Source of the DNA: Malacoraja senta
Taxonomy: Eukaryota
NCBI GenBank assembly: GCA_038087875.1
Contig: CM075989.1
Location: forward strand, 21,144,001 to 21,208,000
Reading direction: 5' to 3'
Length of the DNA: 64,000 nucleotides
Position numbers and translations under genes: made by a program
Shown: positions 9,441-60,169 of the stretch, in pieces
Layout: every line of letters begins with the position of its first letter
Numbering within the stretch: the stretch's first letter is position 1
Notes under the pieces: generated by a model
Database searches by the model: none
Told to the model about the DNA's origin: nothing
The model's input: only the letters and a program-made list of their open reading frames with translations

Positions 9441-9825
9441 CGTTTATAGTCATCTGTTCATGAACATAATTTCCATCAAGACTTTGCAAATATGAGAATA
9501 ACATCTGATGCAATAGATGTACAACTCCAGCTGCATCGTCAAAATAAGGGATCAAAGGCAGCTGCACAGTGGGTTCTATGTAGAGATGTATTTTGAAATT
9601 AAATGCTCTTCCATAAAATGACTTAATGAACTGAGGGATGAATGCAAAAGATGTCCTTCTCTCAGTTCATTCAAAGAATGCAGAGGATTGAGAAAAGGTC
9701 CAATCTCACTCTTTCAAGTCTCCCTTACACTTCCTTCGGTCAAAATTACAGAATTTATTGTTGCGGACTTTAGTGGCACATCATATTTGAAAGGGCATAA
9801 GTAAAGAAAATATTCAGTGTTGCTT

Positions 9826-10029
9826 AGACACAAAAAGCTGGAGTAACTCAGCGGGATAGGCAGCATCTCTGGAGAGAAGGAATGCGTGACGTTTCGGGTC
9901 GAGACCCTTCTTCAGAGCCGAAACGTCACCCACTCCTTCTCTCCAGAGATGCTGCCTATCCCGCTGAGTCACTCCAGCTTTTTGTGTCTATCTTCGGTTT
10001 AAACCAGCATCTGCAGTTCCTTCTTACAC
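9826..10029. mobile_element. Penelope-derived fold-back element with 14-bp TSD
   Basis: Inverted pLTR arms; ATTCAGTGTTGCTT at 9812-9825 and 10030-10043; hammerhead core on the minus strand at 9888-9915. Confidence 0.85.
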
Positions 10030-10144
10030 ATTCAGTGTTGCTTGTCAGAGAGTTAAATGGATAATAGAGGTCATGTAAGCAATCAAAGTGTGCTGCCCTG
10101 TTCTAACAGGCAGTGAAGCCAAACAAGACCCAATGCAAAATGCA

Positions 10145-10343
10145 CACAAAGTGCTGGAGCAACTCAGTGGGTCAGGCAGCATCTCTGGAGAGAAGGAGTG
10201 GGTGACGTTTCGGGTCGAGACCCTTCTTCAGGCCCGAAACATCACCCACTCCTTCTCTCCAGAGATGCTGCCTGTCCCGCCGAGTCACTCCAGCATTTTG
10301 TGTCTGCCTTCGTTTTAACCAGCGACTGCAGTTCCTTCCTACA
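10145..10343. mobile_element. Penelope-derived fold-back element
   Basis: Same inverted-arm structure; minus-strand hammerhead core at 10204-10231. Confidence 0.8.
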
Positions 10344-11714: not shown

Positions 11715-12985
11715 TCAAAGAGTCAAGAGTCAAAAGTGTTTAATTCTCATCTGTACCGGCAACAGAACAACAAACTTCTTACTTGCTGCAGCTTAACAGG
11801 TCCGTTAATGCAATAACACACAGATACATATATCATGATCAATAATAGAATGAATTAATAATCAGCAATACTAGGTAACCATGAAAGTGCAAAGCCAAAC
11901 TCCAAAGACGTACAGGTTTGGAGGTTAATTGGCTTGGTATCAATGTAAAATTGTCCCTAATGTGTGTACGATAGTGTTAGTGTGCGGGGATTGCTGGTCG
12001 GTGCGGACTCGGTGGGCCGAAGGGCCTGTTTCCTTTGCTTTTATCTCCAAACTAAAAACTAAACCAAAATCTGAAATGCAACAAAGAACAGAGTGCATGG
12101 AAGATCATAGTTGCTGAGGTTAGTGTTGTGCGGTATTCAATAGGCTGACGGTTGCTGGGAAGAAGCTATGCTTGAACCTGGTGGTCATGGATTTCAGGCT
12201 CCTGTACCTTCTTCCTGATGGTAAGAGAGACATGAGAGGGAAGCCAGGGTGGTGTGGGCATTTGATGATATTGACTGCCTTTTTGAGGCAGCATCTCCGA
12301 TAGATTCCTGGGATGTCAGGACTTTCATATGAAGAAAGACTGGATAGACTTGGCTTATACTCGCTAGAATTTAGGAGATTGAGAGGGGATCTTATAGAAA
12401 CGTACAAAATTCTTATGGGGTTGGACAGGCTAGATGCAGGAAGATTGTTCCCGATGTTGGGGAAGTCCAGGACAAGGGGTCACAGCTTAAGGATAAGGGG
12501 GAAATCCTTTAAGACCGAGATGAGGAAAAACTTTTTCACACAGAGAGTGGTGAATCTCTGGAACTCTCTGCCACAGAGGGTAGTTGAGGCCAGTTCATTG
12601 GCTATATTTAAGAGGGAGTTAGATGTGGCCCTTGTGGCTCAAGGGATCAGGGGGTATGGAGAGAAGGCAGGTACGGGATACTGAGTTGGATGATGAGCCA
12701 TGATCATATTGAATGGCGGTGCAGGCTCGAAGGGCCGAATGGCCTACTCCTGCACCTATTTTCTATGTATCTATGTATCTATGTAGATCTCTTCGATGGT
12801 GGGGTGGTCAGTACCTGTGATGGACTAGGCACCGTCTACCATTCTCTGTAGTCTTCTTAATTCCTGGGCTTTTGTGTTGCCGAACAAGGCCATAATGCAA
12901 CCAGTTTGTCTACTCCCTACCGTACACCAATAGAAGTTCAATAGAAGATTGAGAAGATTTACCAAATCTTCTCAATCTTCTAAGG
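11715..12985 (-). mobile_element. Rex-type LINE 3' region with a nested SINE tail (11900-12065) and a nested CR1
   Basis: Peptide [31 protein letters not shown]; a related copy lies at 13545-13850. Confidence 0.75.
12303..12785 (+). mobile_element. CR1/HER1 LINE 3' fragment, well preserved
   Basis: Uninterrupted 123-aa frame LSYEERLDRLGLYSLEFRRLRGDLIETYKI...FFTQRVVNLWNSLP, 3' UTR and (CTATGTAT)n tail. Confidence 0.95.
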
Positions 12986-13205
12986 AACTGCAGATGCTGG
13001 TTTATACTGAAGATATCCACAAAATGCTGGAGTAACTCAGCGGGTCAGGCAGCATCTCTGGAGAAAATGGATAGGTGACTTTTCAGGTCAGAATCCTTCC
13101 TCAGTCTCTGAGTCTGAAGAAGGGTTCTGACCTAAAAAGTCACATGTCCTTTTTCTCCAGAGATACTGCTTGACCCGCTGAGTTACTCCAGCATTTTGTG
13201 TCCAT
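12984..13205. mobile_element. Penelope-derived fold-back element
   Basis: Inverted pLTR arms around 13090-13115. Confidence 0.8.
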
Positions 13206-13853
13206 CAGAGGCATTCATGAGCTTACTGCAGGAGGTTAATGGGAAGAGCAACCCAGCAATAATGTATAAACATCCTTCTAACCCATGGCTAAATACTACA
13301 TGGACTCATGACCAAGTAGCTTCATGACTGCCCAGGGATCTCCAGGGTTCATGAACAACTAGCTCTTGGTCAAATAACTAACGGACCCAGGGTCAAAAGG
13401 TCCATCATCCTAGTGATAAATATTGCAACAACCGATGGTTCCACGGTACACTGTTCAGGACAAAATTATCCTTCATCCCAAGAATGAATCATCCACTTGA
13501 TTCCAGGGTCAACTGGTCAAATGTCCCTTAGTCAACTGTGAAGAGTCAAGAGCATCTAATTTTCAACAGAACAATGAAATTCATATTTGCTGCAGATTAA
13601 CAGTCCCGTAAACATAACAACACACAGATTAATATATAATGATCAATAATATAATGAAGTAATAACTTTAATACTAGGTAACCATGATGGTGTAAAACCA
13701 AAGTCCAGAGTTCAACCAAGGACATGGTCTATAGAAGGTCATGGTTGCTGAGTGATATTGTGTAGCATTGAAAAGGCAGATGGTTGCTGGGAAGAAGCGG
13801 TTCTTGAACCTGGTAGTCATGGTTTTCAGGCTCCTGTACCTTTTCTTCACAAA

Positions 13854-14158: not shown

Positions 14159-14670
14159 GAGAAGAGCAAATACTGGATATAAATATTGTTTCATTTACCA
14201 TCATGTCTACTCAATAAGAAAAGAAAATTACTTTTTTTTTAATTAAGTGACAACTAATGGGAAATGTACAAATCCATTAATCCACTACAGAGGATCACTG
14301 AGCACAGTTAGGGAATTCCTACACCCACTTTAAGATCAAGGAAATAACATATACATTTAAAGATGTAAATCGAAATGGAAACCGTTTTGAAGCTGCGTTC
14401 TTCCAATGGTTCACGAGATTTTCCTCTCTCATTTGTACATTCCTCGGAGCCAGCAACATATGTTGTACTGACTTGGTGTGATTCATGGGTGTGAGGATGG
14501 GTGCGAGTTTGTGGGAAATCACAAACTAAAAGGTCGGGAATTTGTGGTGGGAACTGTGGTGGCATTTGCAGCAACTACCGTCATAGTTAACTACGGAGAA
14601 AATCTGGTAGTAACATTTGGGAAGTAAAATGCTAAATCCAATGATTCACTTCATAAGTTCATATCATAAG

Positions 14671-14848
14671 CTTCTTCTTCTTATCGAGTCCACACACAAG
14701 ATTAGAAGTTGTTCAGCCAGAGCTGAACACACTTCTCGGCATCTGCATACAATGGTGTCTGTCTTGTCGCTTCTTGTGCTTCTTGTGCGTGGTTGTGGAA
14801 AGATTGGTGAAGACCGGGCCGCGACGTGAACGCTCTTTCCTTGACCCC
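14671..14848 (-). mobile_element. Short non-tRNA retroposon, Vingi-like bipartite element (copy 1)
   Basis: Starts GGGGTCAAGGAAAGAGCG, ends GGACTCGATAAGAAGAAGAAG; TCATAAGCT on both sides; second copy at 24291-24480. Confidence 0.65.
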
Positions 14849-16335: not shown

Positions 16336-17501
16336 ACATTAACAACCTGCTGAGTTACTCCAGCACTTTGTATCTATTTTCATGATATATGATCAGATTG
16401 GACAGCAGACTTAACAAAGATTTTCACTGTGTATTGGTATACATGACAATAATAAATTAATAGCAATACCATTTCACACAGCACACCGTATTGGTCATTT
16501 TGAGGCATAAGTACTGTTTGTGCAAACCACTTTGATCTGATTTCACAAGCACACAGGTTTAGAGGGATATGGGCCAAGTGCAGGCAGTTGGGACTTGTGT
16601 AGATGAGACATCATGTGGGGAATTTGGGCCAAAGGGCCTCTTTCCACGGTCTTAGACTGTATGACTATGACACACCCTTCTGTTCTTGCTTATCTAATGG
16701 ATGCGTCAGTATGTAGTGGACAGCTCTGAGCTTACAATGGTTCAATTCAAATGAAGGCATTGAACCCTGTCCCAACAGTGCAGCTGCTTTTGAAACATAC
16801 CACCGGACCATTCCAACAATGTGTCAGGATGCGGCTTTGAAAAGTCACTGCTGTAAACATTCTTCTAATCTCGCCCAAGCTGTCCGAGCCTGCCCTTTCC
16901 CATTAAAGTTGGCCCACGTTTACTGTTTGGTGCAATGATATGTTTTCAGCAGTCAGTCCATTCGCATTTTCCTGAGTGCACATTTTTTCTCAGTTTCTGC
17001 AAAAAAAAGCTAACATTTTCCATGTGATCAAAAGTCAATGTGCTGGAGGAACTCAACGGGCCAGGCAGCATCTGTGTGGAGGGAACGGACAGACGATGTT
17101 TCGGGTCAGGATCCTTCTTCAGACTGAAGAAGAAGCAGTGAGTTTAGTTGAGTTTAGTGGAGTGTATTATTGTCACGTGCGCCGAGTTGCAATGAAAAGC
17201 TTTTGTGTTGCTTTTTATCCAGTTACCGAAAAGACTATACATGATAACAATCAAGGTTGACATGGTGTACGGATATAGGATGAAGGGAATAACGTTTAGT
17301 GCAAGATAAAGTCCAGTAAGGTCCTGTTAAAGATATTTCTAGCACTCCAATGAGGTAGATGTTAGGTCAGGGTTGCTCTCTATTTGGTGATTGGATGGAT
17401 CAGTTGCTTCCATTCCCTCCACAGATGCTGCCTGACCCACTGATTTCTATTTTATGGACAAGTTGGGTTGAAGGACCTGTTTCAGCTCAACACAGTGCTT
17501 A

Positions 17502-21110: not shown

Positions 21111-21637
21111 GAGTGGTGCCAGTGAAAATAAAACCCAGTTGAAGAAATGCTACAGGGAGCATTTGAAAATAACATAATTTTGCCAACGCTTTATAATTTA
21201 GATGTTTTTTTTGCTCACTACACTATTTTCTATTTATAAACATCTTCTAATTAAATAATTTCAGCATTAATTGGTGTTTTATTTAATTTTAATTCATTTT
21301 TAATGAGAACTATTACAGGGGCACTTTAATATCATCATTAAGTTTGGCGTGCTGCCTCTCTCTTCAATGTCAAAATGACTGGCCGCCATCTTGAAATTCC
21401 CTTCATTGGGGATTAGATCGGTTTAGTATATTTGGTTTTGAAAACAAATGAAAACCCACACCAAAAAATGTGGGTTTTTTTCTCCCCACTTTCAGGCATG
21501 GGATGGTTACTCATAGATGTAACATTATCAAAAAGGAACAAGCCGTGGTTTAGTGGGGACTATTGACAGTGGGCAGTCTTACTTTGAGTCAGAAACTTTT
21601 ACCCTGGGTGAAAATGTTGAAGACTAGAGGTTGACGA

Positions 21638-21852
21638 GAGACACAAATATCCTGGAGTAACTCAGTGGGACAGGCAGCATCTCTGGAGAGAGGGAATGGG
21701 TGACATTTCGGGTCTTCAGACTCTGAAGAAAGGTCTCAACCCGAAACGTCACCCATTCCTTTTCCCCAGAGATGCTGCCTGTCCCGCTGAGTTATTCCAC
21801 CATTTTGTGTCTATATTCGGTGTACACCAGCATGTGCAGTTCCTTCCTGCAC
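21638..21852. mobile_element. Penelope-derived fold-back element
   Basis: Inverted arms; CTGAAGAAAGGTCTCAACCCGAAACGTC from 21723. Confidence 0.8.
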
Positions 21853-23447: not shown

Positions 23448-24290
23448 ATGAATGAAATGACAGTGAATGCAGTAACAAGGTTCAGCACCATAAGTGCTCA
23501 TCGTTCTGTTTCCCTTCACCAGACCCAATGAATCTGAGGCTATTTCACCACATGCATCAACATCCCTGTTTAGATCACCTCCTTCAGTATAAATCGGGAT
23601 TAAAATCCTGGCCCCGTTGCAATGCTTCTTCCAAATGTTGAGGATTTTGCGGACTGGAGTGAGTATAGGCGTGGGTGGAATGGTGAGGTGCTGCCAATGT
23701 CGTTTACACTTCCAAAGCTGCAGAACATGTCCTCAGTATAATTACATGCAGGCAGGCATACATTTGATATTCAATTATCTCCGCATTTAAAATTTAAATA
23801 AGACCTCCAAGAATTTTTCATGTCTGCAGTGAACTGTAATCAAAAGTCAGTTTCTTCAAGTCAGGTACAGTTGTAGTCCTTGACCTGAAAGACTCATCTG
23901 TATCGTTTCTGCTACAATATCAGGTTTGACCTTCTGTGACTGCTGCACTCCAAAGACTTTGCTTCATTATCCACTGTCGATGCTTTGGTCTCTTTTCCGT
24001 ACCAATCCTGACATTTTCTGACGCTCTGACCTCTGTGTATGTGATCATGAATGCACCAACGTTGTCCTCAAATTATTGCCTAATGGAATAGAGTCTGGGT
24101 GAGGTTTCCACAGCTTGTTGGCACGGTGGCACAGTGCTTTACAATGCCAGAGACCCGAGATCAATCCTGACTACGGGTGCAACCTGTAGTTTGTATGTCC
24201 CCCCCCCCCACCCCGTGACCTGCGTGGGTTTTCTCCTGGATCTTCGGTTTCCTCCCACAATCCAAAGATGTACAGGTTTGTAGGTTAATT

Positions 24291-24480
24291 CTTCTTAATC
24301 GAGTCCACATCATAAGATTAGAAATTGTTCAGCCAGAGCTGAACACACTTCTCAGCATCTGTATACAATGGCATCTTGCGCTTCTTGTGCTTCTTGTGCT
24401 TCTTGTTCGTGGTGGTGGTGGAAAGATTTGGTGGTGGTGGTGGAAGCAGGGCCGCGACGTGAACACTTTTTCCTTGACCC
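24291..24480 (-). mobile_element. Short non-tRNA retroposon, Vingi-like bipartite element (copy 2)
   Basis: Same 5' start GGGTCAAGGAAA and AAG tail as copy 1; TSD GTAGGTTAATT at 24280-24290 and 24482-24492. Confidence 0.65.
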
Positions 24481-24499: not shown

Positions 24500-24634
24500 T
24501 AAGTCTGAAGAAGGGTTTCGGCCCGAAACGTTGCCTATTTCCTTCGCTCCATAGATGCTGCTGCACCCGCTGAGTTTCTCCAGCACTTTTTGTGTACCTT
24601 CGATATTTCCAGCATCTGCAGTTCCTTCTTTAAC
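24500..24634 (+). mobile_element. Penelope-derived short element with hammerhead core
   Basis: CTGAAGAAGGGTTTCGGCCCGAAACGTT at 24505-24532; TSD AGGTTAATTGGCTT at 24484-24497 and 24635-24648. Confidence 0.82.
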
Positions 24635-24709: not shown

Positions 24710-25235
24710 ATTGGCTTGGTACAAAGCCGTCGAGTTGCTGCCTTCCAACGCCAGGGACCCGGGTTCGATCCTGACTACGGGTGCTGTCTGCACGGAGTTT
24801 GTACGTTCTTCCCGTAACCTGCGTGGGTTTTCTCCAGGTGCTCCGTTTTCCTCCTATGCTCCAAAGACGTGCGGGTTTGTAAGCTAATTGTTAGGAAGGA
24901 ACTGCAGATGCTGGTTTACACTGAAGATAGACACAAACTGCTGGAGTAACTCAGCGGGACATCTCTGGTTAGAAGGAATGGGTGACATTTCGGGTCGAGA
25001 CCGTCTCAAGCTGAAACGTCACCCATTTCTTCTACCCAGGGATGCTGCCTGTCCTGCTGAGTTCCTCCAGCAGTTTGTGTGTACGTTCTGTAGGTTTAAT
25101 TGGCTTTGGTAAAGATTGTAAATTGTCCCTAGTGTGTGTAGGATAGTGCTAGTGTATGGGGATCCCTGGTGGGTGCGGACTCGGTGGGCCGAGGGGCCTG
25201 TTTCCGCGCTGTATCTCTACACTAAACTAAACTAA
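24710..25235 (+). mobile_element. HE1-like SINE with a nested Penelope fold-back element (~24890-25085)
   Basis: SINE head/core, inverted pLTR arms, then SINE tail. Confidence 0.85.
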
Positions 25236-26495: not shown

Positions 26496-26609
26496 TCTGA
26501 AAAGGTGGAATGCAGAAATTGAAACTTAGTTGAATTTGGTTTCTTTGGATTGAAGGATGTCTTTTTTTTGTTAAGTGGTGCTTAAATTAAGTCATTCAAA
26601 TTAGCAGAA

Positions 26610-27110
26610 ACAGGGAACTGCGGATGCTGGTTGATACACAAAAGGACATGAAGTGCTGGAGTATTTCAACAAGTCTGGCAGCATCTCTGGAGAACACGAG
26701 TAGATGTCCCTGCACCTATCCATGTTCTCCAGAGATGCTGCCTGACCTGCTGAGTTACTCCAGAACTTTGTGTCCTTCTTTGCATTGGCAGTAGGCCCAA
26801 AGCAGCCCGTGGCAACCTGTTAGGTTCAGTTTCAAACTGGAACAGCAGCTTCATGATATACAGTGTTAAATGCGATCTTCAGAGAGAGGTAGACAAAAAT
26901 GCTGGAGAAACTCAGCGGGTGAGGCAGCAACTGTGGAGCGAAGGAATAGGTGACGTTTCGGGTCTAGACCCTCGAGATCAGTTTGAAGAAGGGTCTCGAC
27001 CCGAAATGTCACCTATTCCTTCGCTCCATAAATGCTGCCTCACCCGCTGAGTTTCTCCAGCATTTTTGTCTACCTTCGATTTTTCCAGCATCTGCAGTTC
27101 TTTCTTAAAC
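26610..27110. mobile_element. Two Penelope-derived fold-back elements (26610-26780; 26887-27110)
   Basis: Inverted pLTR arms; TTGAAGAAGGGTCTCGACCCGAAATGTC near 26983. Confidence 0.8.
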
Positions 27111-29777: not shown

Positions 29778-30122
29778 TTAGAGATATAGTGCAGAAACAG
29801 GCTCTTCAGCCAACCGAGTCCGCACCGACCAGCGATCCCCATGCACTATCTAGATGCACTAGGGACAATTTACATTTATACCAAGCCAATTAACTTACAA
29901 CCCATGACCTGCGTGGGTTTTCTCCGAGATCTTCAGTTTTCTCCCACACTCCAAAGACGTACAGGTTTGTAGGTTAATTGGCTTGGTGCATGTGTAAATT
30001 GTCCCTAGGGTGTGTAGGATAGTGTTAATGTGCGGGGATCGCTGGTTGGCGCGGAGTCGGTGGGCCGAAGGGCCTGTTTCTGTGCTGTATCTCTAAACTA
30101 AACTAAACTAAACTAAACTAAA
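29778..30122. mobile_element. Inverted pair of HE1-like SINE 3' parts
   Basis: Minus-strand tail (29778-29900) joined directly to a plus-strand core and tail (29901-30122). Confidence 0.85.
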
Positions 30123-30644
30123 ATCATACATCTTCTTTACCAACGAGGAAACCCCCCATAAAAGCAGATCTGACAAAGGGTTAGAAATGTTCACAGTTTC
30201 TCTCCCCATGGATATTGCTTGTGCAGTAGACAATTTCCAACATTTCCTCTTTGATATCACAGTTTTCTTTTGATTTTCAAGGAATCTTTCTCTCCAGATT
30301 CAGGGACAATTTCTTCTCAGCTGCTATCAGGCAACTGAACCATCCTATCACAATCCAGAGAGCGGTCCTGACCTCCCACCTACCTCATTGAACACCCATT
30401 AGACAATCTTTAATTGGACGTTACTGGACTTTATCTTGCACTGAATGTTATTCCATGTATCCTGTACCTGTACACCATGGATGGCTTGATGTAATCATTT
30501 ATAGTCTGTAGATCCCTCGGTTGTTGGAGAGGTCAGTATCTTATATGGACCAGGCAGCGTCTACTAATCTCATTCATTGCTGGGCCTCGAGTTTCCAAAT
30601 CAGGCTGCAATGCAACCAGTCTGGCTGCTCTCAACCAAACTCTG

Positions 30645-31049: not shown

Positions 31050-32090
31050 CTTCTTGTTTCTCATTGTCACCTTCCCCTCAGCCAACAATGAACCATTCTG
31101 AATCAACACGAAAAGCTGGAGTGACTCAGCGGGTCAGACAGCATCTCTGGGTAAAAGGAATAGGTGACGTTTTGGGTCGAGACCCTTCTTCAGACTGAGA
31201 GTCTGGGGAAAGGGAAACGAGAGATATAGACGGTGATGTAGAGAGATATAGAACTAATAAATGAAAGATATGCCAAAAGGTAACGATGATAAAGGAAACA
31301 GGTGATTGTTAGCTGTGGGCTCGGTGAAAACGAGTTACAGACAATGAGAAACATTCAACATTTCCTTGATCGTTGTCTGCTTTAAGGGGCTGTCCCACTG
31401 CGGCGACCTTATTGGCGAGTTTAGAAGAGTTTAGGAGAGTTTGAAAAAATGACATGTTAAAGACCTCCTTCGACCTCCTTCGACTATGCTGAAGTCTAGC
31501 TATGACTAACTTCGGGAAAATTGGACACCGAATAGTGGAGAGTGAAGACGACCTCCTTCGATCTCCTTCGACCTCCTTTCGACTATGATGAAGACTATCT
31601 ATGACTACCTTCGACTACCTTCGACTACCCTTGATTACCTACGACTAACATGCCGATCTACTACGACTAAACCTACCAGTAAAGAAAGGATTGATTTTTT
31701 TCATGGCGACCTTTAATTGCTCGCGGGCATTTTTCAAAATGTTGAAAAATACGCCACGACCTAGCTGAGGCCTTGAGTACACGGGGACTACTCTTAAGCA
31801 TGAAGGAGAGCTACAAAGACCTCCTACAATCTCGTGTCGACCATGCTGCGAGTATGAGTCGAGGGCAAACTCGCCAGAACTCGCAGATTAGGTCGCCCAA
31901 GTGGGACAGCCCCTCTAACCTGTCATTTTCACACCTTACATTCTCTTTGTGCCCATCCATATCTCAGGCTTCCTTCTCCCCTGATTGCCAGTCTGAGGAA
32001 GGGTCTGGACCCGAAACGTCACCTGTTCCTTCTCTCCAGAAATACCACCAGTCCCACTGAGTTCCTCCAGCATTTTGTGTCTATTTTCAG
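31050..32090 (+). mobile_element. Penelope 3' UTR/pLTR with a nested inverted Penelope UTR (31105-31352) and a MITE
   Basis: Ends CTGAGGAAGGGTCTGGACCCGAAACGTCACC...; the nested piece matches 58675-58905. Confidence 0.7.
31385..31914. mobile_element. PIF/Harbinger-type MITE (family D)
   Basis: TIRs AGGGGCTGTCCCACT..GGCGACC / GGTCGCC..AGTGGGACAGCCCCT; flanks TTA and CTA; tandem GACCTCCTTC and GACTACCTTC units inside. Confidence 0.88.
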
Positions 32091-35667: not shown

Positions 35668-36336
35668 ATCACATCCTAGTTTTCTAGGCACAGCACTTGA
35701 GATAGGCTGGAAACATATAAATAATCCTGTGGTACTCAAGATTCACTTCCCATGAGAGGCGACTGTAAAAAATGTCTTCAGCTGCCAGTAATGGACAGTT
35801 TCCACAACCAGACCTTACCGAAGGAAGAAGCAGATGATAAGAGTACCGGTGATTTATTTTCAGTGTCATCCATCAGAGGGTTTGCCTTCAGTATCTTTCA
35901 TAACAGTGGTGATACAAATATTTAACACTTCGGTAAATCATCTTTCCCCTGGCAAAACACACAGAAAAAACAAAGTGCTGGAGCAACTCGGAACAATGAT
36001 CTGTCTGTAGAAGGCTCCCGACCCCAAACGTCACCTATCCATGTTCTCCAGAGATGCTGGCTGACCCGCTGAGTCACTCCAGCGCTTTGAGTCCCTTTTG
36101 CTGGGGGAACTCAGCAGATCAGGCGGCATCTGTTCAAGGAAATGGACAATGATTGGAGTCGGGATTCTTCTCCAAACCCCACCCGGACTGTTGTCTGACC
36201 ATTCCCTCCACAGATGCCGCCTGACCTGCTGAGTTCCTCCGGAAAAATTCCTTGCACGGGTTCACAGGGAGAACGTGCAAACTCCGTACAGACAGCGGCC
36301 ATTGTCAGGATCGAACCTGGGTCTCTGGCACCGTAA

Positions 36337-39051: not shown

Positions 39052-39239
39052 AAGGTACACAAAAATGCTGGAGAAACTCAGCGGGTGCAGCAGCATCTAT
39101 GGAGCGAAGGAAATAGGCAACGTTTCGGCCCGAAACGTTGCCTATTTCCTTCGCTCCATAGATGCTGCTGCACCCGCTGAGTTTCTCCAGCATTTTTGTG
39201 TACCTTCGATTTTCCAGCATCTGCAGTTCCTTCTTTAAC
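39052..39239. mobile_element. Penelope-derived fold-back element, perfect palindrome
   Basis: 39052-39206 has perfect 77-bp inverted arms centred on 39129; ACATAATCAAGG at 39044-39055 and 39240-39251. Confidence 0.9.
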
Positions 39240-39292: not shown

Positions 39293-39570
39293 GTAGGAAG
39301 GAACTGCAGATGCTGTGTTAAACCAAAGATAGACACAAAAAGATGGAGTGGGCTACGTTTCGGGTCGAGACCCTTCTTGTTAGGGCGGAAGATACAAAAA
39401 GCTTGAAAGCACTTACCAGCAAACTCAGGAATAGCTTCAGTCTGAAGAAGGGTCTCGACCCGAAACGTCACCCATTCCTTCTCTCCATAGATGCTGCCTC
39501 ACCCGCTGAGTTACTCCAGCTTTTTGTGTTGACCTTCGATTTTACCAGCATCTGCAGTTCTTTCTTACAC
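39293..39570. mobile_element. Penelope-derived inverted pLTR pieces with intact hammerhead core
   Basis: CTGAAGAAGGGTCTCGACCCGAAACGTC at 39442-39469. Confidence 0.82.
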
Positions 39571-40092: not shown

Positions 40093-40190
40093 TGTACAGG
40101 AGTATTTGATTTTATAGGACAGCACACAAATAAGAACCTTTCACTGTACCTCAGTACATGGGACAATAATAAACCAACAACAATACAAAT

Positions 40191-40569
40191 CTCCCGGTGG
40201 CTCAGCACTTCAACTCCCCCTCCCATTCCGAATCCGACCTTTCTGTCCTGGGCCTCCTCCATGGCCAGAGTGAGTCCCACCGCAAAATGGAGGAGCACCA
40301 CCTCATATTTCGCTTGGATAGTTTACACCCCAGCGGTATGAACATTGACTTCTCCAATTTCAGGTAGTCCATGCTTTCTCCCTCCTTCCCCTCCCCTTCC
40401 CAGCTCTCGCACAGCCCACTGTCTCCGCCTCATCCTTTCTTCTTCCCCGCTCCCCACCCCCCACCCCACATCAGTCTGAAGAAGGGTCTCGACTCGAAAC
40501 GTCACCCATTCCATCGCTCCATAGATGCTGCCTCACCCGCTGAGTTTCTCCAGCTTTTTGTCTACCTCC
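40191..40569 (+). mobile_element. Penelope-like element 3' end: GIY-YIG endonuclease C-terminus, UTR, pLTR
   Basis: 40191-40367 translates as LPVAQHFNSPSHSESDLSVLGLLHGQSESHRKMEEHHLIFRLDSLHPSGMNIDFSNFR* (PLE endonuclease HF..H/R..E/P.G.N motifs; not in the ORF track); hammerhead core at 40476-40503. Confidence 0.9.
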
Positions 40570-41629
40570 AATACGAAGTAAAATCCAGCTCAACAATGGG
40601 AAGAGATGTTCGACTCAAATATCAGAAAGCCAAATTATTCCAGTTTTGAGAAAAATAACACATCCTATACTTCCTTGTAATTAATGATCTGTAAATCAAT
40701 TACAGAAATACGCATCATGGAAATGTATAATTTCCACAAATGCATTTCTATTAGCGGCTTTGTTAATTGCAGCAAAAAGAAAAACTGCACCCTACCATTT
40801 TTTTTTTGTCGAGGAATTTCGCCACAGTGAATGTGCATAACCTGTGCTGTGTGTTAATTAATTACAACTGATGTGAGCCGCTGAGCAAGTGTTTGCATCT
40901 GCCGCAGATGTAATGCGCATTAAACAACTCTTTTTCCATTAACAGATACGAAGTTTATCTCACAAACGCGCTGCATGTTGCTTCACCCCCTTCGGGCAAC
41001 TGTCAAAATATGTTGATAATGCCGCCCCCACCTCACCAGTCCCCCCATCCTACTGTGAGTTTCTGCTGCTCCTTTCCAAGCCTCTTATGTCTGCAAACAC
41101 TTACCGAAATGATCAGAGTAGAACTATCATTATTGCAGCTCCCCATTAGCTTGTATTTAATGAAACTTTTAGCTTCTTTAAACATAATAGATTTAAATGG
41201 GATCAATAAATAATGCATGAGCCTAAATTACTTTAAACACATCTTTGCAAATGTACAAGATGTCAATTGTCATTGCTCTGCGATAGAACTCTTAACTCTT
41301 GTCTGTCCATATTGTTTGTTAATGTGGAATTAAATCAATAAGGGTTACGCTTTTACTACCTCCAGGGAACAACTTGGACATTGTGACGTTTCATCTACTT
41401 TTGTTGGTTGGTTGGTTGCATTGGTCCATAATACTGAACCTCTGCCACTAGGTTCATAAGGTCAAAAGGAATAGGAGCAGAATTAGGCCACTCGGCCCAT
41501 CAAGTCTGCTCCGCCATTCAATCATGGCTGATCTATCTCTACCTCCTAACCCCATTCTCCTGCCTTCTCCCCATAACCTCGAACACCCGTACTAATCAAG
41601 GTTGTGGTAAGTTTATCGAGTGGCCTAAG

Positions 41630-43387: not shown

Positions 43388-44197
43388 TTAGTGTTTTGCT
43401 GTTGATTTGTTCGGACAGGCAGCATCTCTGAGAGAAGAAAAAGGGGTCTGAAGAAGGGTCTCGACCTGAAAAGTCACCCATTTCTTCTCTCCAGAGATGC
43501 TGCCTGGCCCGCTGAGATACTCCAGCATTTTGTGTCTATCTTTGAAGTGATTTTGGAATGTGAAGTCAGGTGAAGGGATACAGGTGGAAGGGGGCAGGAG
43601 ACAGGAGGGGAGGAATAGAGGGAGAAATGGGTGCGTATCCAGATGCGGCTCAGTGAAGATGCGGGGGAGAAAGCGGAGAGAAGGTGTGTTTGTTGGTTAG
43701 TTACCTAAAATTGGGGAATTCAGTGTTGCTTCCATTACCTGCAACGATTCATAACAGCAAACAATTGTTTGTGTCTTGAGTTTATGCTATCTACTTCAAC
43801 AGCGGTGAAACATAGCCAGTCTTGTATGCTATCTATTGACGAACAGCGTTGTAGATAAACAATTGACTATGAAAAAAACATATTCAGCGTGAGGTGAAAT
43901 CTTTCAGTGTACAGGGTTCATGCTGAGGTTATCTTTCTCCATTGATGGTATCTGTTAATAACCTCTGGTGAAGCTTTGCTCTACAGGTTCTACCTCAATT
44001 GCGCATTACAAACATCTCGGTAATATTCTGGCCCCAGCGCCTCAAACGCATAATGTGAGACGATAGTTCTGTTTAGCAAAAAAAAACACATTGAAAGGAA
44101 TGATTTAGCAGTTTGAAAAACCTTGACTTGACACAGCAGAGTGGAGCTTGAAAATGAATTGGACTTGTTGATGGAGTACTTTTCTTCTATTTATTTT

Positions 44198-45517: not shown

Positions 45518-45960
45518 TCGGAAGGAACTGCCGACGCTGGTTTTTTAACCAAAGGTAGACACAAAATGCTGGAGTAACTCAGCGGGACAGGCAGCATCTC
45601 TGGAGAGAAGGAATGGGTGACGTTAGGGTCGAGACCCTTCTTCACCCTGAAACGTCACCCATTCCCTCTCTCCAGAGATGCTGCCTGTCCCACTGAGTTA
45701 AGGGCCTGTCCTACCTTCACGACCTAATTCATGACCAATGCCGAGTTTACCCTTGACTCATACTCGCAGCATGGTCGTCACGAGGTCGCAGGAGGTCGTA
45801 GGTAGGTCGTAGCAGGTTGTGATGCTAGTCGTAGATACTCGTGGCATCAAGTAGGTCGGGGCGTTTTTTCAACGAAAAATGTCCACGAGTAAAAAAGGTC
45901 GTGAATTAGGTCGTGAAAGTGGTACAGGCCCATTACTCCAGCATTTTGTGTCTACCTTCA
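45518..45960. mobile_element. Penelope-derived fold-back element hosting a MITE
   Basis: The pLTR motif GAGTTACTCCAGC is split at TTA by the MITE. Confidence 0.82.
45701..45932. mobile_element. PIF/Harbinger-type MITE (family B, copy 2)
   Basis: TSD TTA at 45698-45700 and 45933-45935, confirmed by the host motif; similar to 5092-5318. Confidence 0.92.
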
Positions 45961-47510: not shown

Positions 47511-47675
47511 GAAGATCCAACATCTCTGGAGAACAAGGATAGGTGACGTTTCAGGTTGGGACTTTCCTTCAGTCTGAAGAAGTGTCTAAAGTCCTTTAGA
47601 CTTTATAGATACAGCACAGAAACAGCTCCTTTGACCAACCAAATCTGCGGCGACCAGCAATCCCCCTACCCATGT

Positions 47676-47892
47676 GAAGGAAGGAACTGCAGATGTGGGT
47701 TGAAACCAAAGATAGACACATAAAGGTGGAGTAACTCAGCATCTCTGGAGAGAAGGAATGGGTGACGTTTCGGGTCGAGACCCTTCTCCAGATACCAATC
47801 CACGTTCTCCAGAGATGTTGCCTGACCCGCAGAGTTACTTGAGCGCATTTTGTCTTTATTTTTAAACCAGCATCTGCAGTTCCTTGTTTCTG
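47676..47892. mobile_element. Penelope-derived fold-back element
   Basis: Inverted pLTR arms. Confidence 0.78.
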
Positions 47893-50142: not shown

Positions 50143-51734
50143 CACATCCTCTCTTGCTTCCCTATATACTTTTTACTTTTCAAAGCTATAAACCGCACAG
50201 CTTAGTTCAATTGGGATACAAGGAACTGCAGGAGCTGCTTTACAAAAAAAGACACAACGTGCTGGAGTAACTTAGCAAGGCAGGCAACATCTCTGGAGAA
50301 AATGGATAGATGATGTTTCAGGTCAAGACCTTTCTTCTTCAGAAGAAATCCAAAATGTCACCTATCCATATTCTTCAGAGATGCTGCCTCTTTTATTATG
50401 GATAGCATGCAAACAAAAGATTTTCACTGTATCTCGGTACACGTGCCAATAATATACAAAATTAAATTAAATCTTATTTAGTTTTAGTTTTGTTGACATT
50501 AATGTAGAAACAAAGAACTGCAGGTGCCAGTTAATACAAAGTGCTGGAATAACTCAGTGGGTCTGGCAGTATGTCTGGACAACATGGATAGGTGATGTTT
50601 CGGGTCGGGTCCTTTTTTCAGACCTATGTGCACGCTGATCCATATCAGTGAACATGCATGTGCGTGTGTGGTTGTGTAACAAATAAGGGCCCAAGGAAAA
50701 ATGCTGCCGCTCCATGCAACAAGGTCTTTGATCACATTCCAAATGTATCCATTTAAAAATAACCTGTGTTGCGTGATAGAATCTCCAGGTCTCCAATCTT
50801 GACTGGTGAAGTTTAGCTGGCAGTGTGTAGACATATATTAATATATCTGCTGGGCTCCCGCACTGCAGTCTGAACTCTTGCAAAGAATGAATCATTGTAC
50901 TTAGGGTTGAATTACAGTTTAAGAATTTGCAGTGACAGGCATGAGGAGCAGGCATAATGAGATCATTGTCTCTTGCCAACATGCCCACCTCTACTAAACT
51001 CCTGCCACTCTATCCCGTTAGACATTCAGCAGATTATAATGCCCCTTTCAAGCAACACTCTCACCACGAGCTCGGACAACAGGCTCACTGTTCCCCTGGT
51101 CGTGAACTGATACCGAATATTTTCCAAAGCAGTCAGAAAATATGTTGGTGTCGTGTTGAATCGGGCTCTGCGGGGGAAGTTAATACCGTGCTCAACTTGA
51201 TAAATGAAAACATCAGGACACATTTTGGTTCGCAGGATGTGTGAATACATTTGTGTTGGCACGGGGCAGGCGTTGGCATGAACTGTCCACTTACAAAGCC
51301 CAGCATATGGGGAGATAAGGAGTTACCACACAGCGCATCGGGTCCATGCCATTTTCCTGTCGCCATCGATGATCGTTGCAAGGTCTCTCCCTCGGTCGTT
51401 GGCTGGACAAATGCCAGGCAGCTTCCAGGACAATATTAGCACGCAGGTCAGGATGGGCGAGGCTTACGGAGAGAGCAAGACTAACCAGACGAATTAAACC
51501 AACAAATATTTTCATCAAAGACCAACCTTTCTTTCCAAACAACAATCTTAAGCAAATAAAGATACCAAGTGCTGGAGTAACTCAGCAGGTCAGGCAGCAT
51601 CCATGGAAAATATGGACAGATTGGGTGGGGACAGAAAGTTCGAAAAGTGGGGGGTGGGCAGGAAAGAGGGTTTTTTAATATGTAGATTGGACAATTTTAA
51701 ACGAATGATGGCCAATGAAACTTTTAGATTAGTC

Positions 51735-52250: not shown

Positions 52251-53810
52251 AGATTCAGATTCAGATTCAGATTCAGATTCAACTTTATTGTCATTGTGCA
52301 GTGTACAGTACAGTGTCAACGAAATGCAGTTAGCATCTCCCTGGAAGAGCGACATAAATATGAGCAGTAAATAAATAAATCTAATAAATCCTGGTGGGAG
52401 GAGTGTCCGGGGGGGGGGTGATTGGCAGTCACCGAGGTACAGTGTTGAGTAGTGTAACAGCCGCAGGGAAGAAGCTGTTCCTGGACCTGCTGGTCCGGCA
52501 ACGGAGAGACCTGTAGCGCCTCCCGGATGGTAGGAGGGTAAACAGTCTGTGGTTGGGGTGAGAGCAGTCCTTGGCGATGCTGAGCGCCCTTCGCAGACAT
52601 CGCTTGCTTTGGACAGACTCAATGGAGGGGAGTGAGGAACCGGTGATGCGTTGGGCAATTTTCACCACCCTCTGCAGTGCTTTCCGGTCGGAGACAGAGC
52701 AGTTGCCATACCCTACTGTGATACAGTTGGTAAGGATGCTCTCGATGGTGCAGTGGTAGAAGTTCACCAGAATCTGAGGCGACAGATGGACCTTCTTTAG
52801 TCTCCTCAGGAAGAAGAGACGCTGGTGAGCCTTCTTGACCAGAGTTGAGGTATTGTGGGTCCAAGACAGGTCATCGGAGATGTTGACCCCCAGGAACCTG
52901 AAGCTGGAAACACGTTCTACCTCCGTCCCATTAATGTGGATGGGGGTGTGCGTGCCGCCCATAGACTTCCTGAAGTTTACAATGAGCTCCTTGGTCTTCT
53001 TGGAGTTAAGGGCCAGGTTGTTGTCAGCGCACCATGCTGCTAGGAGCTGGACCTCCTTCCTATAGGCCGACTCATCGTTTTTGCTGATGAGGCCAATCAC
53101 CGTTGTATCATCTGCATACTTGATGATGGTGTTAGTACCATGTACAGGTGTGCAGTAGTAGGTGAAGAGGGAGTAGAGGAGGGGGCTCAGCACACAGCCC
53201 TGTGGAACGCCGGTGTTCAGGGTGAGGGTTGAAGAGGTGTGCTTGTCTAACCTAACAGACTGGGGTGTGTTGGTTAGAAAGTCCAGTATCCAGTTGCAGA
53301 GGGAGGGGATTTGGTGATCAGTTTAGAGGGTATGATGGTGTTGAATGCTGAGCTGTAATCGATGAACAGCATTCTAACATAAGTGTCTCTGTTGTCGAGG
53401 TGGGAGAGGGCGGAGTGAAGTGCCGTTGAGATGGCATCCTCCGTACTCCTGTTCTTGCGGTAGGCAAACTGATAGGGATCCAACGTGGGGGGTAGGCAGC
53501 CTTTGAGGTGTGCCAGGACCAGCCTCTCGAAGCACTTGGCGATGATGGGAGTAAGTGCAACTGGGCGGAAGTCGTTGAGGCTTGCCGCAGTGGAGTGTTT
53601 TGGCACCGGCACGATGGAGGTGGATTTAAGGCACGTGGGCACAACTGCTTGGGCAAGTGACAGGTTGAAGATGTCAGTCCAGACGTCTGTCAGCTGCGCA
53701 GCACAGGCCCTGAGGACGCGCCCGGGGATGCCGTCGGGGCCAGCAGCCTTACGTGCATTAGTCCTACTCAGTGCCACGTACACGTCGTAGGGGGTGAGTG
53801 AGAGGGGCAG
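52251..53810 (-). mobile_element. Rex1/Babar-clade non-LTR retrotransposon, 5'-truncated, RT domain
   Basis: [17 protein letters not shown]..., [69 protein letters not shown]; one frameshifting deletion near 53310; stop at 52429; (GAATCT)n tail at 52251-52280. Confidence 0.93.
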
Positions 53811-54000
53811 GGAGCCAACTGCCGATTGTCGATGCAAGGAGTTCTACATGTGTGCAGGGATCACTGGTTGGTGCAGACTCGGTGGGCCAAGGGCCTGTTT
53901 CCGTGCTGTATCTCTAAACTAAACTAAATTCCTCTCATCAGCTAAAGTGCGGTCCTGACTTCTCATCCACCTGATTAGAGACCATTGAACTATCTTTAAT

Positions 54001-54129
54001 CTGAAGAAGGGTCTCGACCCGAAACGTCACCCATTCCTTCTCTCCAGAGATGCTGCCTGTCCCGCTGAGTTACTCCAGCATTTTGTGTCCACCTTCCATT
54101 TAAACCAGCATCTGCAGTTCTTTCTTACA
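54001..54129 (+). mobile_element. Penelope-derived mini-element starting at the hammerhead core
   Basis: CTGAAGAAGGGTCTCGACCCGAAACGTC at 54001-54028; TSD TATCTTTAATC at 53991-54001 and 54130-54140, inside a Rex-type UTR. Confidence 0.87.
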
Positions 54130-55385: not shown

Positions 55386-58300
55386 ACCAGATATAAATTA
55401 TGTCTGGTGACAAAACACTTGGCTGAAGCGTTACAGTTATTCTGGCTCCACTCTGTGGAGCCCAAACTCACTTTCCCTTAGGGATTACATAACGGAAGCA
55501 TGGCAATGGGCAAATGTGGACAACGTATAAATTCCGTACTGACAGTACCCATAGTCAGGATCGAACCTGGATCTCTGACGCTGTAAGGCAGCAACTCTAC
55601 CGCCGTGCTGCCCTCATCTTATCCTCAATGAAATTGTGTTGGTAACCAGTAATATCCGATTAATCCAATGAAGATATTTACCTAGTTTTTCTCCCGTAAT
55701 AGATGCTAAAATTGATTTGAGGCTAACCCAATTTAACGGTATTTGCAAATAAAAATGTAAGAGCCATCTCTGCATAATTTATTATAGCAGAATAATGGCC
55801 CCATAGCAGAAGCGTCCACGTCACGGGGCTAGAAACTGGAAGTGTCCTGAGCTAATTCTGCTACTCCCGTCATCCATGGCGTCAAGTGATGGCTCCCACT
55901 GATTGTCGCCGGAATCCTGCGTCCTTTTCAGGACGGATGATGACAGCGAGGTCAACGTTTGTAACAAGATGGACACGAAAAGAAGAAGAAGCAGAATAAT
56001 GAACTGTTCTGGAGAGAAAGAAAACAATCTCCAGTAACCCACAAGGCTACAAAACATATTTGAAATCCATAGCTGGGTTCAATGTTTTATTAAAGCAAAA
56101 TACTGACACAAAGGATTACAAATCCTAACAATGGAACAATAGGAAAAAATCTGGTTGGCTTTTCACAAAATGATTAGGAGGAGAAGGTTTAAGCAATGCA
56201 TCTGGAGATTGCTTTCCCTGATTCTTCATTAGCCTTTAATGTTCTTAGTTTTCTTAGTTGCAATTATAACTAATGAAATATTTGTGAAGTCAAATACTAC
56301 ATCTGTAAATAGAATCTGCTATTAGAGCCTTTTCTTGCAAACTTGAAATACCATGGAGCTTTTAAAAGGCAACATGAGGGGATATTATTACTTTAATTAA
56401 TCAGTTTTTATTATAATTGCATCCATTCAATCATTAAGAAGGCTTGTGCTCGGAAGCACTCATGCTGGAGTTGCTGGTGAGAATAACTGTGGTGCAGGGA
56501 GGCAAAAACAAATTTGCAATGTCAGTATTGATAATATGTTGCGGAGAAAGAAATGTCCAAATCAATTGAGCCTCATCTGGGCAATTGGACAAATTCAGGC
56601 TTCCAGCAGGACTAGGCCGACTCCTGATAAATTTGCCCTTATTATCGCTATTGATGTTTGAATTTCTTCAGGTTGTTGTTACATGGGCACCAGGCAGCAA
56701 CAGTGGTTCCACGACCTGCTTCAATCCATAATCTACACCTGTTAGTGCTTACCCTTGTTGCCTTCTGAGTATGTTTCAGCTAAAAGGTTAACAAAAGATT
56801 TGTCTGAGAAAACAGGCTAGCTCTTTACTCCTGCAGCAACAGATCAATGCAGAGTAAATAACCTTTTCTACCTTATTTCCCAGAGCACTATTGATCTCCG
56901 AGATTTTTTTTCCCCCTTCCTTTTTCCTTCAGCGCTCCTGTCTGCTAACCCCTGGGACTCTAACGATCGCCTCATATTGGACATGCTAACTGGCATATTA
57001 TGACAGCTAGTGTTTTGTCACTCTGCGCATTGCTATATAAAAGTGTCTGCTCTGAGTCCCAGCCTCACGATTCGGCAACATGGCGAGGAAAATGTGAAAG
57101 ACCACAATTTTTCTTTTTCTTTTCCTGCTGCTTCCTTTCCGCCATTAATTTCTTGGATCTCTTCCCAAACGCCGAACCGGGACCAACAGCGAATGTCGGG
57201 AAAGCGGCCCTTCACGGAGCACATTTCAATGTGTTTATTTGTAGGGTAAGTCTTCCTTCTAAGCCGGCAGTAAACCAAAAGAACCACTTATGGTTTTGAT
57301 AGACATTGGTCGAGGGGTAGCAAGACATCACAAATGTTGTGCCCTCAATTATGACAGGAATCAGAACTCGAGTAGAATAATTGTTTTTTTTTAAAACTTT
57401 ATAAGCTTTGTTTACCAAAATTAGAAGCAGGTAATTTTAAGATTCTAAGGGTGTACTTGATGTGCAATAGAAGAAATATTGGATATTTTGTGTGTATCCT
57501 CAATGCTGGTCTAATTTTATTGAACTGTAGCTATCATTTATACATCTCAGTTACACATTTGATGGTTAGCTAGCAAAACCATGCTGTTAAACCACAGTGT
57601 AGGCATCAATCTTATTGAATATTATCTGTTTATAAAGCACCGGACTTATCTCTCCTCAGCAGGATAATGTTGCTTCCATTTTATGATACAATATTTGAAA
57701 TAGATATATTTACTCCACTTCATGATGCCTAACAAGGTAGAGGTGAAAACTATTTCAAAAAGAAACTCATTCTCAGGCATTTAGCAATACACACAGATGA
57801 CATATTATTTTAGACATAATTCTGAAGATTTGTTTTACAATTTTATTTAAATGGATTCAAAATGACTGCACAATGAAAGGTTGCAGCAACAAGATACTGT
57901 TGATAATATTATGCTCTTAACAATGACAAAAGGTTAAAACATTACACAGAACTACACAAACGGTGAGTTTGATATATTCAGAGAAAAATGCTCAAAACTT
58001 TTTTTTCCCCACTTTTTATCTTCTTTGTATAATAAGCTGGTGCTATGATGTATTACTGTCAAAACTATTACTGGTAACAATCTGTAATGGCTGAGATTAC
58101 TTGTCAAGCATTCGTTATCAAAGATTAAAATGATTTTAAAAATATTGTTCCGTTTTCAGTTCTAACATGTTAAACATAAAGTTCAAATTCTCGAGATTAA
58201 CATTGTATATATCCCTTAAAAGAAAATAGACTTGCAAATACAGACCAACAGTTTAATCAAAATTTTATTGCAGGATTATTCCTACATTGTGGTATTTTGC

Positions 58301-58669: not shown

Positions 58670-59042
58670 CAAAGATAGACGCAAAAAGCTGGAGTAACTC
58701 ATCGGATCAGACAGCATCTCTGAGGAAAAGGAATAGGTGACGTTTCGGGTCGACACCCTTCTCCAGACTGAGAGTCAGGGGAAAGGGAAATGAGAGATAT
58801 AGACGGTGAGATAGAGAGATATAGAACAAATGAATGAAAGATATGCAAAAGAGTAACAATGAAACAAGAAACAGGCCATTGTTGGCTGCGGGCTAGGTGA
58901 AAACAATGATGGGTTGGGGAGGGATGGAGAGAGAGCAGGGATGCAAGGGTTACTTGAAGTTAGAGATATCAATACTTATACCGCTGGGTTGTAAGTTGCC
59001 CAAGCAAAATATGAGGCGTTGTTTCTCCAATTTGCATTTGGC
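58670..59042 (-). mobile_element. Penelope-like element 3' end, second subfamily
   Basis: 59042-58950 translates as AKCKLEKQRLIFCLGNLQPSGISIDISNFK*, followed by UTR and a degenerate hammerhead pLTR. Confidence 0.85.
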
Positions 59043-60169
59043 AAAATACATGAATGACTGAATCAAATAACAAGAAGGTAAAGAAGATAAAAGTGGAAAT
59101 GGAATAAGGTTACTGCTGAACCGTTTACCACAATATTGATTTTCCCTTTCTTTTATTCCCGATGAGTATCTTTTTTCTCCTTGCTGTTAATGACTGATTA
59201 CAGCCTTTCCCTTTATGATGACAACACCACTAATATTGTCAACACTTTGTCAATTGATCAATGCACTACAAAGTAATATTTGTTTCCCATGCCACTAAAA
59301 ACATTGCCTCTAATTGAAAAACGATGGGACACTTCACAGGCGATACGACAAACTGCAGATGCTGCGATCTTGAGCAAAGCACAGAGTGCTGGAGGAACTC
59401 AGGGGTTTAGGCAGTCTGAAGAATGGTCCCGACCCGAATGGTCATCTGTCCATTCTCTTCACAGATGATGCCTGACCCGCTGAGTTCCTCCAGCATTATG
59501 TGTTGTACACGTTACAGGACATGTTTGATGTGTGGAGATATTGTCCTGTGACTTAGAGTCATAGAGAGTCGTAGAGTGATACAGTGGGGAAACAGGCCCG
59601 ACTTGCCCAAGCTGGCCAACATGTCCCAGCTACACTAGTCCCACCTACCTGTGTTTGCCCCATATCCTTCCAAACCTGTCAAACCCATCATCTCCCGGAG
59701 AACTGTTCAGTCTGGGTGGATTCATGAAGTTTAAATTTCAAAAGAAATCCTGTCCTTTATTCTAGTTTAGGTTAGTTTAGAGATACAGCGTGGAAACAGG
59801 CCCTTCAGCCCACCCTTCTCCCCGTTACCTGGTCAGCGTGGACTCAGTGGGCCGAAGGGCCTGATTCCACGCTGGATCTCTAAACTAAGCTATAAAAGTG
59901 GGTACCTCTATGACCACAAGGGCACTTACAATCAGCTTTAGGTTCTGGCTGTTCCAACAATACCCACAACCTGTGGATGACTTTTTCAAAAAAACTTTAA
60001 ATAAGGAATGAACTGTCTTGTTCAATTCTCTTCCATGTTGTCTTGAAGTTGCAATTTCTTACAGGGTATTTGGCATGTGGGCTTGTGGATTTATTGGCCG
60101 CTGTACAATTGGCCCTAATGTGTAGGGGGTGGATACGAAAGTGGGATTTCTGGTATAGTTTAATTACAT

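Follow-up and report, generated by a model that had tools for sequence, protein, structure and literature searches.

Hammerhead-bearing insertions in a skate genome as probable by-products of a Penelope-like retrotransposon

The window analyzed here, a 64,000-nucleotide stretch of the Malacoraja senta genome (positions 21,144,001 to 21,208,000 of contig CM075989.1), carries at positions 54001-54129 a 129-base insertion with an 11-bp AT-rich target-site duplication on both sides. The host repeat has two further copies, at 4997-4931 and 30359-30449, in which the flanks are joined without this segment, so the segment is a true insertion. It begins with a predicted minimal type-I hammerhead ribozyme motif and continues into the 3' region and tail of a Penelope-like element (PLE). 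A fairly young LINE-type reverse transcriptase (RT) with two long frames (189 and 297 aa) adjoins the insert on the minus strand (52429-53843). Related copies occur throughout the window, as short stubs, as head-to-head pairs and as longer 5'-truncated copies (Table 1). Positions within the element are numbered from the C of CTGA (+1, which is 54001 in the 54001 copy), so that the A of the AGT just before it is -3 and the predicted cleavage base is +28.

Table 1 Features of the Penelope-like family in the window (positions are those of the window)
Position	Strand	Feature	Remarks
53991-54001	+	Left copy of the 11-bp AT-rich target-site duplication	Last 2 bases also element -1/+1 (microhomology)
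54001-54129	+	Solo mini-copy: hammerhead motif, 3' region and tail of a PLE	Duplication, empty sites
54001-54030	+	Minimal type-I hammerhead motif, predicted, of the 54001 copy	Features as in PMC4209133
54001-54007		Core of this hammerhead
54008		Extra A
54009-54012/54017-54020		Stem II
54021-54024		GAAA
54024-54027		ACGT palindrome	Predicted cut after 54028
54090-54129	+	Optional tail, about 35-40 nt, between the two 3'-end clusters	Tail described in PMC8557442, PMC11167929
54130-54140	+	Right copy of the target-site duplication
40188-40367	+	C-terminal 59 codons and stop of PLE GIY-YIG endonuclease (P0001)
40368-40565	+	Longer 5'-truncated copy: pyrimidine-rich 3' UTR, initiator-like TCAGTCT, hammerhead	No tail; TCAGTCT at 40471-40477, A = 40473
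58672-59042	-	Second long copy, other subfamily: endonuclease C-terminus, 3' UTR, hammerhead	Core change; no tail
31103-31331	-	Long copy, subfamily of 58672-59042	88% over 221 nt; no tail
31933-32085	+	Copy with upstream 3' UTR	No tail
2983-3152	+	Older copy, pyrimidine-rich upstream taken as 3' UTR	Upstream without close partner in window; no tail
39439-39569	+	Intact solo mini-copy	Starts at AGT
24502-24633	+	Solo mini-copy, UUCG-loop subfamily	14-bp target-site duplication
9825-10028		Head-to-head pair, arms -1 to 91 and 16 to 129	16-bp duplication, 1 mismatch
10143-10343		Head-to-head pair	Junction register as in 9825-10028
39052-39238		Perfect 77-nt inverted pair, centre in stem II	14-bp duplication, 1 mismatch
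43411-43545		Pair, inverted arm from +29	Shares 2-nt stem-I register with the other arm's -2/-1 bases
12982-13206		Head-to-head pair
21636-21846, 24892-25092, 26608-26780, 26887-27107, 36099-36240		Other head-to-head pairs
45521-45700, 47677-47889, 50220-50390, 59351-59505		Other head-to-head pairs

Results

The family was mapped by BLAST with ten window copies as queries, which gave 56 segments at about 39 loci, amounting to 5.7 kb or 8.9% of the window (among the segments, 39293 and 39341 probably belong to a single copy that has a deletion, and 35970 is doubtful). An earlier estimate of roughly 20 copies in 64 kb was thus too low. The exact hammerhead motif, originally noted at 39442, 54001, 9915 (minus strand) and 10231 (minus strand), is present at these positions and also at 5810 (minus strand), there followed by ATC and not GTC. 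The motif pattern had seven matches in the window and none in 100 shuffles, and the exact pattern had none in metagenome, viral or prokaryote contigs. Variants at 21723, 24505, 31993 and 40476 are as first described. Stem II is indeed kept in the GGGT(TTCG)GCCC variant, as had been claimed, but the change is one-sided (U-G) rather than compensatory, and the cleavage triplet of that copy is GUU.

In 27 aligned copies that span the motif, all 11 core positions (CUGANGA / GAAA / UH) are intact in 14, and core, 4-bp stem II and ACGT palindrome are all intact in 7; the 58766 copy has an altered core. ACGT is the majority form of the stem III palindrome among the aligned copies. Mean identity in these 27 copies, which were chosen by BLAST similarity and are related, is 0.955 in non-CpG core columns, compared with 0.778 in free columns (P=1.4e-4) and 0.893 in the tail (P=0.009), the columns not being independent. 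The original prediction had proposed this comparison of catalytic nucleotides with their flanks, and the catalytic positions prove the better conserved. An extra A at 9/10.1, which had been raised there as a caveat, is present in all 27 copies, and the G10.1-C11.1 pair is kept in 22; the caveat is needless, given that a nucleotide between 9 and 10.1 is among the conserved features of PLE minimal hammerheads in PMC4209133. The description in that paper is matched by the core, the extra A, the closing G-C pair and the ACGT, and the original prediction was right that these are PLE terminal sequences with a minimal type-I hammerhead and a palindromic stem III. The five long copies each have a stem I of 2 bp, which is also the length of helix I in D. 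virilis (PMC4209133).

Pairing is found in 88% of the cells of stems I and II, with covariation not above that of shuffles. The hammerhead-type dimer is predicted at -12.7 kcal/mol versus -21.1 for a competing cofold, and in monomer folds the hammerhead is hidden in other pairings, with a stability no better than that of shuffles (z -0.03 to -1.5). No hammerhead family appears among the 52 Rfam matches at E<=5 in the window. The predicted scissile bond is present uncut in nearly all copies; slow or protein-assisted cleavage is described for hammerheads of relatives (PMC4209133, PMC11167929).

The motif had been placed downstream of a GIY-YIG C-terminus, and this holds at 40188-40364 (P0001) as well as at a second endonuclease C-terminus (59042-58953). 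Only the C-terminal 59 aa are encoded, the GIY-YIG motif itself being absent from the window, and Pfam gave no match to P0001. Skate pieces that do carry GIY-YIG are 72-81% identical to P0001, with the best protein matches in Leucoraja and Rhinoraja, and the C-terminus of a shark RT-endonuclease protein (P0153) is 52% identical. Relatives come from whale, zebra and bamboo sharks as well as from rays, and full-length ones have 803-893 aa with DKG and RT. A PLE-type RT is absent from the window and present in shark and other relatives; the 64-kb window holds no full-length copy of the element, and protein searches recovered no intact skate open reading frame (ORF) of it. Homologues of P0001 from skates and sharks have a CxxC inside GIY-YIG and, upstream, a CX2-5CxxC linker (P0003, P0154, P0156, P0158 and others), seen in these relatives and lying outside the window's own sequence. 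This linker is a mark of Neptune/Nematis (PMC8557442), and the window element is, judged by motifs and not by a tree, of a Neptune/Nematis-type lineage. In the zebra-shark model P0153 the RT-endonuclease is followed by a low-complexity stretch and then by SLMKGLRPKRQ, which resembles the hammerhead frame of the window, SLKKGLDSKRH (a match at the peptide level, in 1 of 273 proteins searched). This peptide is indirect evidence suggesting that the endonuclease-hammerhead layout is shared beyond skates. Several skate and ray gene models (P0002, P0003, P0004, P0158, P0206) join PLE ORF pieces to unrelated exons or to a LINE RT and are probably annotation chimeras; in P0002 a LINE RT is joined to the PLE endonuclease, and the representative-protein search with this model was uninformative.

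Short copies have diagnostic changes in common with the long, ORF-bearing ones (by eye): 40476 with 26983, 31193/58766 with 5810, and 3063 with 36005/50621. Duplications of 9-16 bp (score at least 8) flank 8 of 25 units with hand-set boundaries, compared with 2.8% of mismatched-flank controls. The 3' ends are bimodal, with 23 of the 56 segments ending at 80-100 and 22 at 119-135, which resembles the pair of RT start sites by which the tail is defined in Anolis (PMC11167929). At 54056-54118 and in other copies, a 5' strand at about +51-58 can pair with either +79-84 or +109-116, and each of these 3' strands lies just 5' of one 3'-end cluster. These alternative tail stems are 85% and 92% paired, without covariation, and may position the two RT start sites.

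Head-to-head pairs number 14 (15 were listed and a doubtful one was dropped), with one tailed arm in 11, two in 1 and none in 2; an inverted partner with a one-sided tail is a known pattern of Penelope insertion (PMC8557442, PMC3846280). Arms are more alike within a pair than between pairs (0.893 versus 0.825, P=3e-4), and the own partner is the closest arm for only 4 of 14 short arms; gene conversion could be another cause of the identity within pairs. Pair junctions vary between insertions yet reuse hammerhead complementarity: arms start at about +16-19 in 9915, 10231, 45645 and 50339, whereas +29 is joined to -2/-1 in 43446 and nearly so in 47791. In four copies that have lost A(-3), 3-6 of the bases upstream are complementary to the copy's own +29 region, as they are at 5481, 5810 and 50621. 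PMC3846280 argues that head-to-head self-priming needs an antisense template, but the same arrangement would also arise, with no such template, from fold-back or end-to-end annealing of minus-strand cDNA. Fold-back alone is insufficient for the pairs (9915, 10231) whose untailed arm extends further 5'; two cDNAs from the two start sites fit. The first ~9 hammerhead bases recur, in direct or inverted orientation, at 5484-5492, 5813-5830, 17123-17135 and 47573-47585, immediately upstream of stubs, and look as if a cDNA end had re-annealed before it was joined to the target. Head-to-head inverted pairs are also formed by other repeats (SINE/LINE tails, 29850-30017 and 59768-59892), so inversion is not unique to the PLE family. 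The inverted pairs score in Rfam as microRNA-like hairpins below the gathering cut-offs; we regard the miRNA matches in the window as artefacts of these pairs, and in annotation the palindromes of the element could be taken for miRNAs or MITEs.

The 5' ends of the family crowd at the edge of the hammerhead, a boundary that, like the head-to-head pairs and the two 3' ends, the original prediction had missed. Between +89 and +5, 27 of the 56 segments stop (0.77% per base), many of them within the hammerhead. The other 29 reach +4, and 21 of these stop at -8 to +4 (23 by script, from which two long copies with partnerless upstream sequence were moved out), 3 are overlap artefacts at -9 to -20 and 5 run into the 3' UTR. 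Hence, 21 of 29 edge-reaching segments end within 12 nt of the hammerhead's 5' edge, whereas the downstream rate predicts 8.9% (P=2e-16). Contigs from public runs that align to 40160-40610 number 118,059 and 127,890 in two large runs and 11,721 and 9,151 in two small ones. Among the six loose ends listed per run, those with unrelated flanks fall at 40473 (628, 778 and 103 contigs), 40474 (749) and 40470 (47), with an agreement of 0.32-0.40 and with AT-rich flanks in the two large runs; because all long copies share at least -3 to -1, the ends with unrelated flanks there are real element boundaries. Among the ends listed, those at 40471 are as many (818 and 1,034) as those at 40473, with the 3' UTR of the other subfamily as their consensus, and long copies are therefore not rare in those runs. 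In each of the four runs the hammerhead and tail have a higher contig depth than the 3' UTR, but depth is no copy number and is given no weight here.

The boundary coincides with TCAGTCT, with its A at 40473, which we take to be a full match to the (short) initiator consensus. A DPE-like match at the expected spacing (4 of 5 positions of the consensus) was dropped, its chance being about 1 in 6 by a hand estimate. A promoter within PLE repeats (PMC2377424) and an initiator-like sequence in a rotifer pLTR (PMC3846280) have been described. The habit of starting just before the ribozyme motif may well mark the start of the element's RNA, and the sharp boundary predicts an RNA start at the adenosine of TCAGT. 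The tail is present in none of the 5 long copies and in 7 of 11 edge-starting solos (hand-sorted, P=0.034), which fits an origin of the two kinds from different ends of the RNA.

Discussion

The account we favour is that 54001-54129 represents the final 129 bases (hammerhead motif and tail) of a PLE of Neptune/Nematis-type lineage that encodes an endonuclease, and that the stubs are likely by-products of the enzyme of the full-length element and not a separate family, a reading to which we give a probability of about 0.7. That the stubs derive from the full-length element as by-products is, taken by itself, highly probable. As to how they form, another PLE provides a guide in vitro: its RT-endonuclease nicks AT-rich DNA on both strands, and cDNA synthesis, on an uncleaved RNA template, begins at two internal sites that lie ~110 nt past the hammerhead (PMC11167929). 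The skate RNA would start at the A of the initiator-like TCAGT, 3 bases before the core, which would leave an intact start site ~130 nt from the RNA 5' end, and priming there would end in run-off after ~95-130 nt. The free cDNA end could then be joined to the target by microhomology, giving solo copies, or pair by 2-3 bases with hammerhead-derived sequence, its own or that of a second cDNA, giving head-to-head pairs; priming in the downstream repeat would give the longer ORF-bearing copies. The ribozyme would be a slow, dimer- or protein-assisted cutter in the master RNA and only a passenger in the stubs. We hold the run-off step, drawn from the positions of copy ends, at a little under even odds. 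The 27 of 56 segments that stop downstream of +4 count against it and suit stalling as well, and the precedent of D. virilis Penelope, in which transcription starts ~120 nt upstream of the hammerhead and before a 75-bp intron (PMC4209133, PMC2377424), differs from a start at -3.

Two alternatives concern the run-off step only. The RT may end prematurely on a long RNA, by stalling or because the new cDNA snaps back after copying the self-complementary hammerhead segment or at the upstream pyrimidine tract, with no RNA end involved. Junction registers that follow hammerhead complementarity (stem I, +16-18), the 14 of 56 segments that stop at +5 to +22 and the heavy 5' truncation that is normal in PLEs (PMC8557442) all agree with such termination, but solo copies with duplications abutting -3 to +1 (54001, 24505, 23313) show no fold-back, pairings of 2-3 bp are a weak trigger and the monomer fold is not unusually stable; we consider it unlikely, if a serious competitor. 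The boundary could otherwise be a 3' splice site (pyrimidine tract, CAG|T), with stubs made from spliced RNA; D. virilis offers a precedent in an intron that extends up to helix I (PMC4209133). A pyrimidine tract and AG do precede the hammerhead in five of five long copies, but AG is kept next to unrelated upstream sequence in the short copies 24505, 26983, 39442 and 59416, the copies share no exon 1, and no joint of the required form is found among the best 15 of 225, which leaves splicing with a slim chance.

The other two alternatives change what the stubs are. The original prediction saw a heavily amplified, protein-free, ribozyme-marked retroposon family; the stubs would then be an independent non-autonomous mini-element, transcribed and re-mobilized in trans, SINE- or retrozyme-like. 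The very high density and defined length of the stubs would suit it, as would their retention of the whole region matching the protein-binding and RT-start segment of PMC11167929, which would make any stub transcript usable as a template; PLE-derived non-autonomous retrozymes have moreover been reported in vertebrates, including one chondrichthyan (bioRxiv 10.64898/2026.07.22.740005). However, no tandem array containing the hammerhead motif is found among the 24 TRF rows or in the BLAST map of the window, the short copies belong to subfamilies of long ones, pair junctions vary and the scissile bond is uncut, so that a stand-alone family is not supported. Few segments begin beyond the cleavage site (5 of 56, at +23 to +33), and there is no tRNA-like head: ARAGORN, which misses decayed heads, found 0 genes in the window, and the element starts at the hammerhead. 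We consider an independent family improbable, and judging from one window, some stubs may have been re-mobilized. Even less credible is a rolling circle, proposed for PLEs in PMC4209133, in which hammerhead cleavage and ligation give a circular RNA that is then copied. A few joints do return to 40473-40474, as it would have it, but circular RNA would lack an end at -3 and should give rise to tandem units, none of which occur among the 24 TRF rows, and insertion in vitro did not need cleavage (PMC11167929).

A more specific form of the by-product reading is speculative, and we rate it as rather doubtful. The stubs would be integrated cDNAs of the 'strong-stop' kind: on an RNA that starts 3 bases ahead of the hammerhead, an RT primed ~95-130 nt from that start would run off and normally jump to the RNA 3' end, where hammerhead cleavage would leave a 31-nt repeat (-3 to +28) like a retroviral R region, and the ACGU palindrome would pair two RNAs for the dimeric enzyme. 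If true, this would account at once for pLTR regeneration, the uncut ribozyme in genomic copies and the head-to-head pairs, and skate genomes would be a very large record of the intermediate. Literature listings gave no description of a skate PLE, of palindromic non-autonomous PLEs or of a strong-stop model. Regeneration of the terminal repeat and the role of the ribozyme are questions raised by PMC2377424 and PMC11167929, for which the skate stubs are material in abundance, with more than 100,000 contigs per run carrying the element in two large runs (118,059 and 127,890).

Hammerheads in PLE repeats, abundant solitary copies and the inverted-plus-tail layout are already published, and the finding is ordinary and well explained by known PLE biology. 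Like canonical PLEs with a C-terminal endonuclease (PMC8557442, PMC3846280), the family has the order GIY-YIG C-terminus, 3' UTR, hammerhead and tail, the CX2-5CxxC linker (in relatives), head-to-head copies, a one-sided tail (30-40 bp in theirs), duplications of ~8-16 bp and 5' junctions with microhomology. It differs in that most window insertions are just the last 90-130 nt, with 5' ends crowding at the hammerhead edge, two features not described for PLEs in the portions of the literature at hand. Metazoan PLE minimal hammerheads (PMC4209133) have the same core, extra 9/10.1 nucleotide, G10.1-C11.1 pair and palindromic 15.2/16.2 without loop 3, as well as many solitary copies and opposite-strand neighbours, but stems II and I are 4 and 2 bp in the window, compared with 7-8 and 4-5 bp in Schistosoma and 6 and 2 bp in D. 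virilis. Cartilaginous fish are not named in the available main text of PMC4209133, and the supplements of that paper, of PMC11167929 and of the retrozyme preprint may hold cartilaginous-fish motifs or end distributions. The Poseidon element of Anolis (PAc, PMC11167929) shares AT-rich targets, the copying of an uncleaved hammerhead and a spacing of ~35-40 nt between two 3' ends that lie downstream of the hammerhead; it belongs to another clade, has an ATG at stem II that is absent from the window copies, and is known biochemically, whereas the skate element is known from sequence alone. Non-LTR retrozymes (bioRxiv 10.64898/2026.07.22.740005) are likewise PLE-related and non-coding with a type-I hammerhead, but are defined by head-to-tail tandem units, of which the window has none.

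Other ribozyme-like motifs in the window

A predicted HDV-type ribozyme motif lies at 55787-55862 (plus strand), matching the Rfam CPEB3_ribozyme model at 34.7 bits against a cut-off of 35, with a whole-window E of 1.7e-5. In P2, 7 of the 8 bp have the bases of the Rfam consensus in both strands, P1 pairs over 6-7 bp with an altered sequence, the J4/2 C is kept and P3 has one mismatch. A scan with short motifs found no CPEB3 exon in the window, and literature listings gave no statement of a shark CPEB3 ribozyme. Because an ATG at 55876 opens a short broken frame and a 23-nt motif is common with the repeat at 14816/24449, a LINE 5'-end ribozyme appears more likely than a CPEB3 orthologue, and either would give a clue to where the CPEB3 ribozyme came from. 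Two repeats on the minus strand (14651-14847 and 24289-24480, 81% alike) do not fit the full HDV descriptor; their starts match positions 14-45 of the CPEB3 model (26.7 and 24.8 bits), and they are possibly decayed relatives of the 55787 motif.
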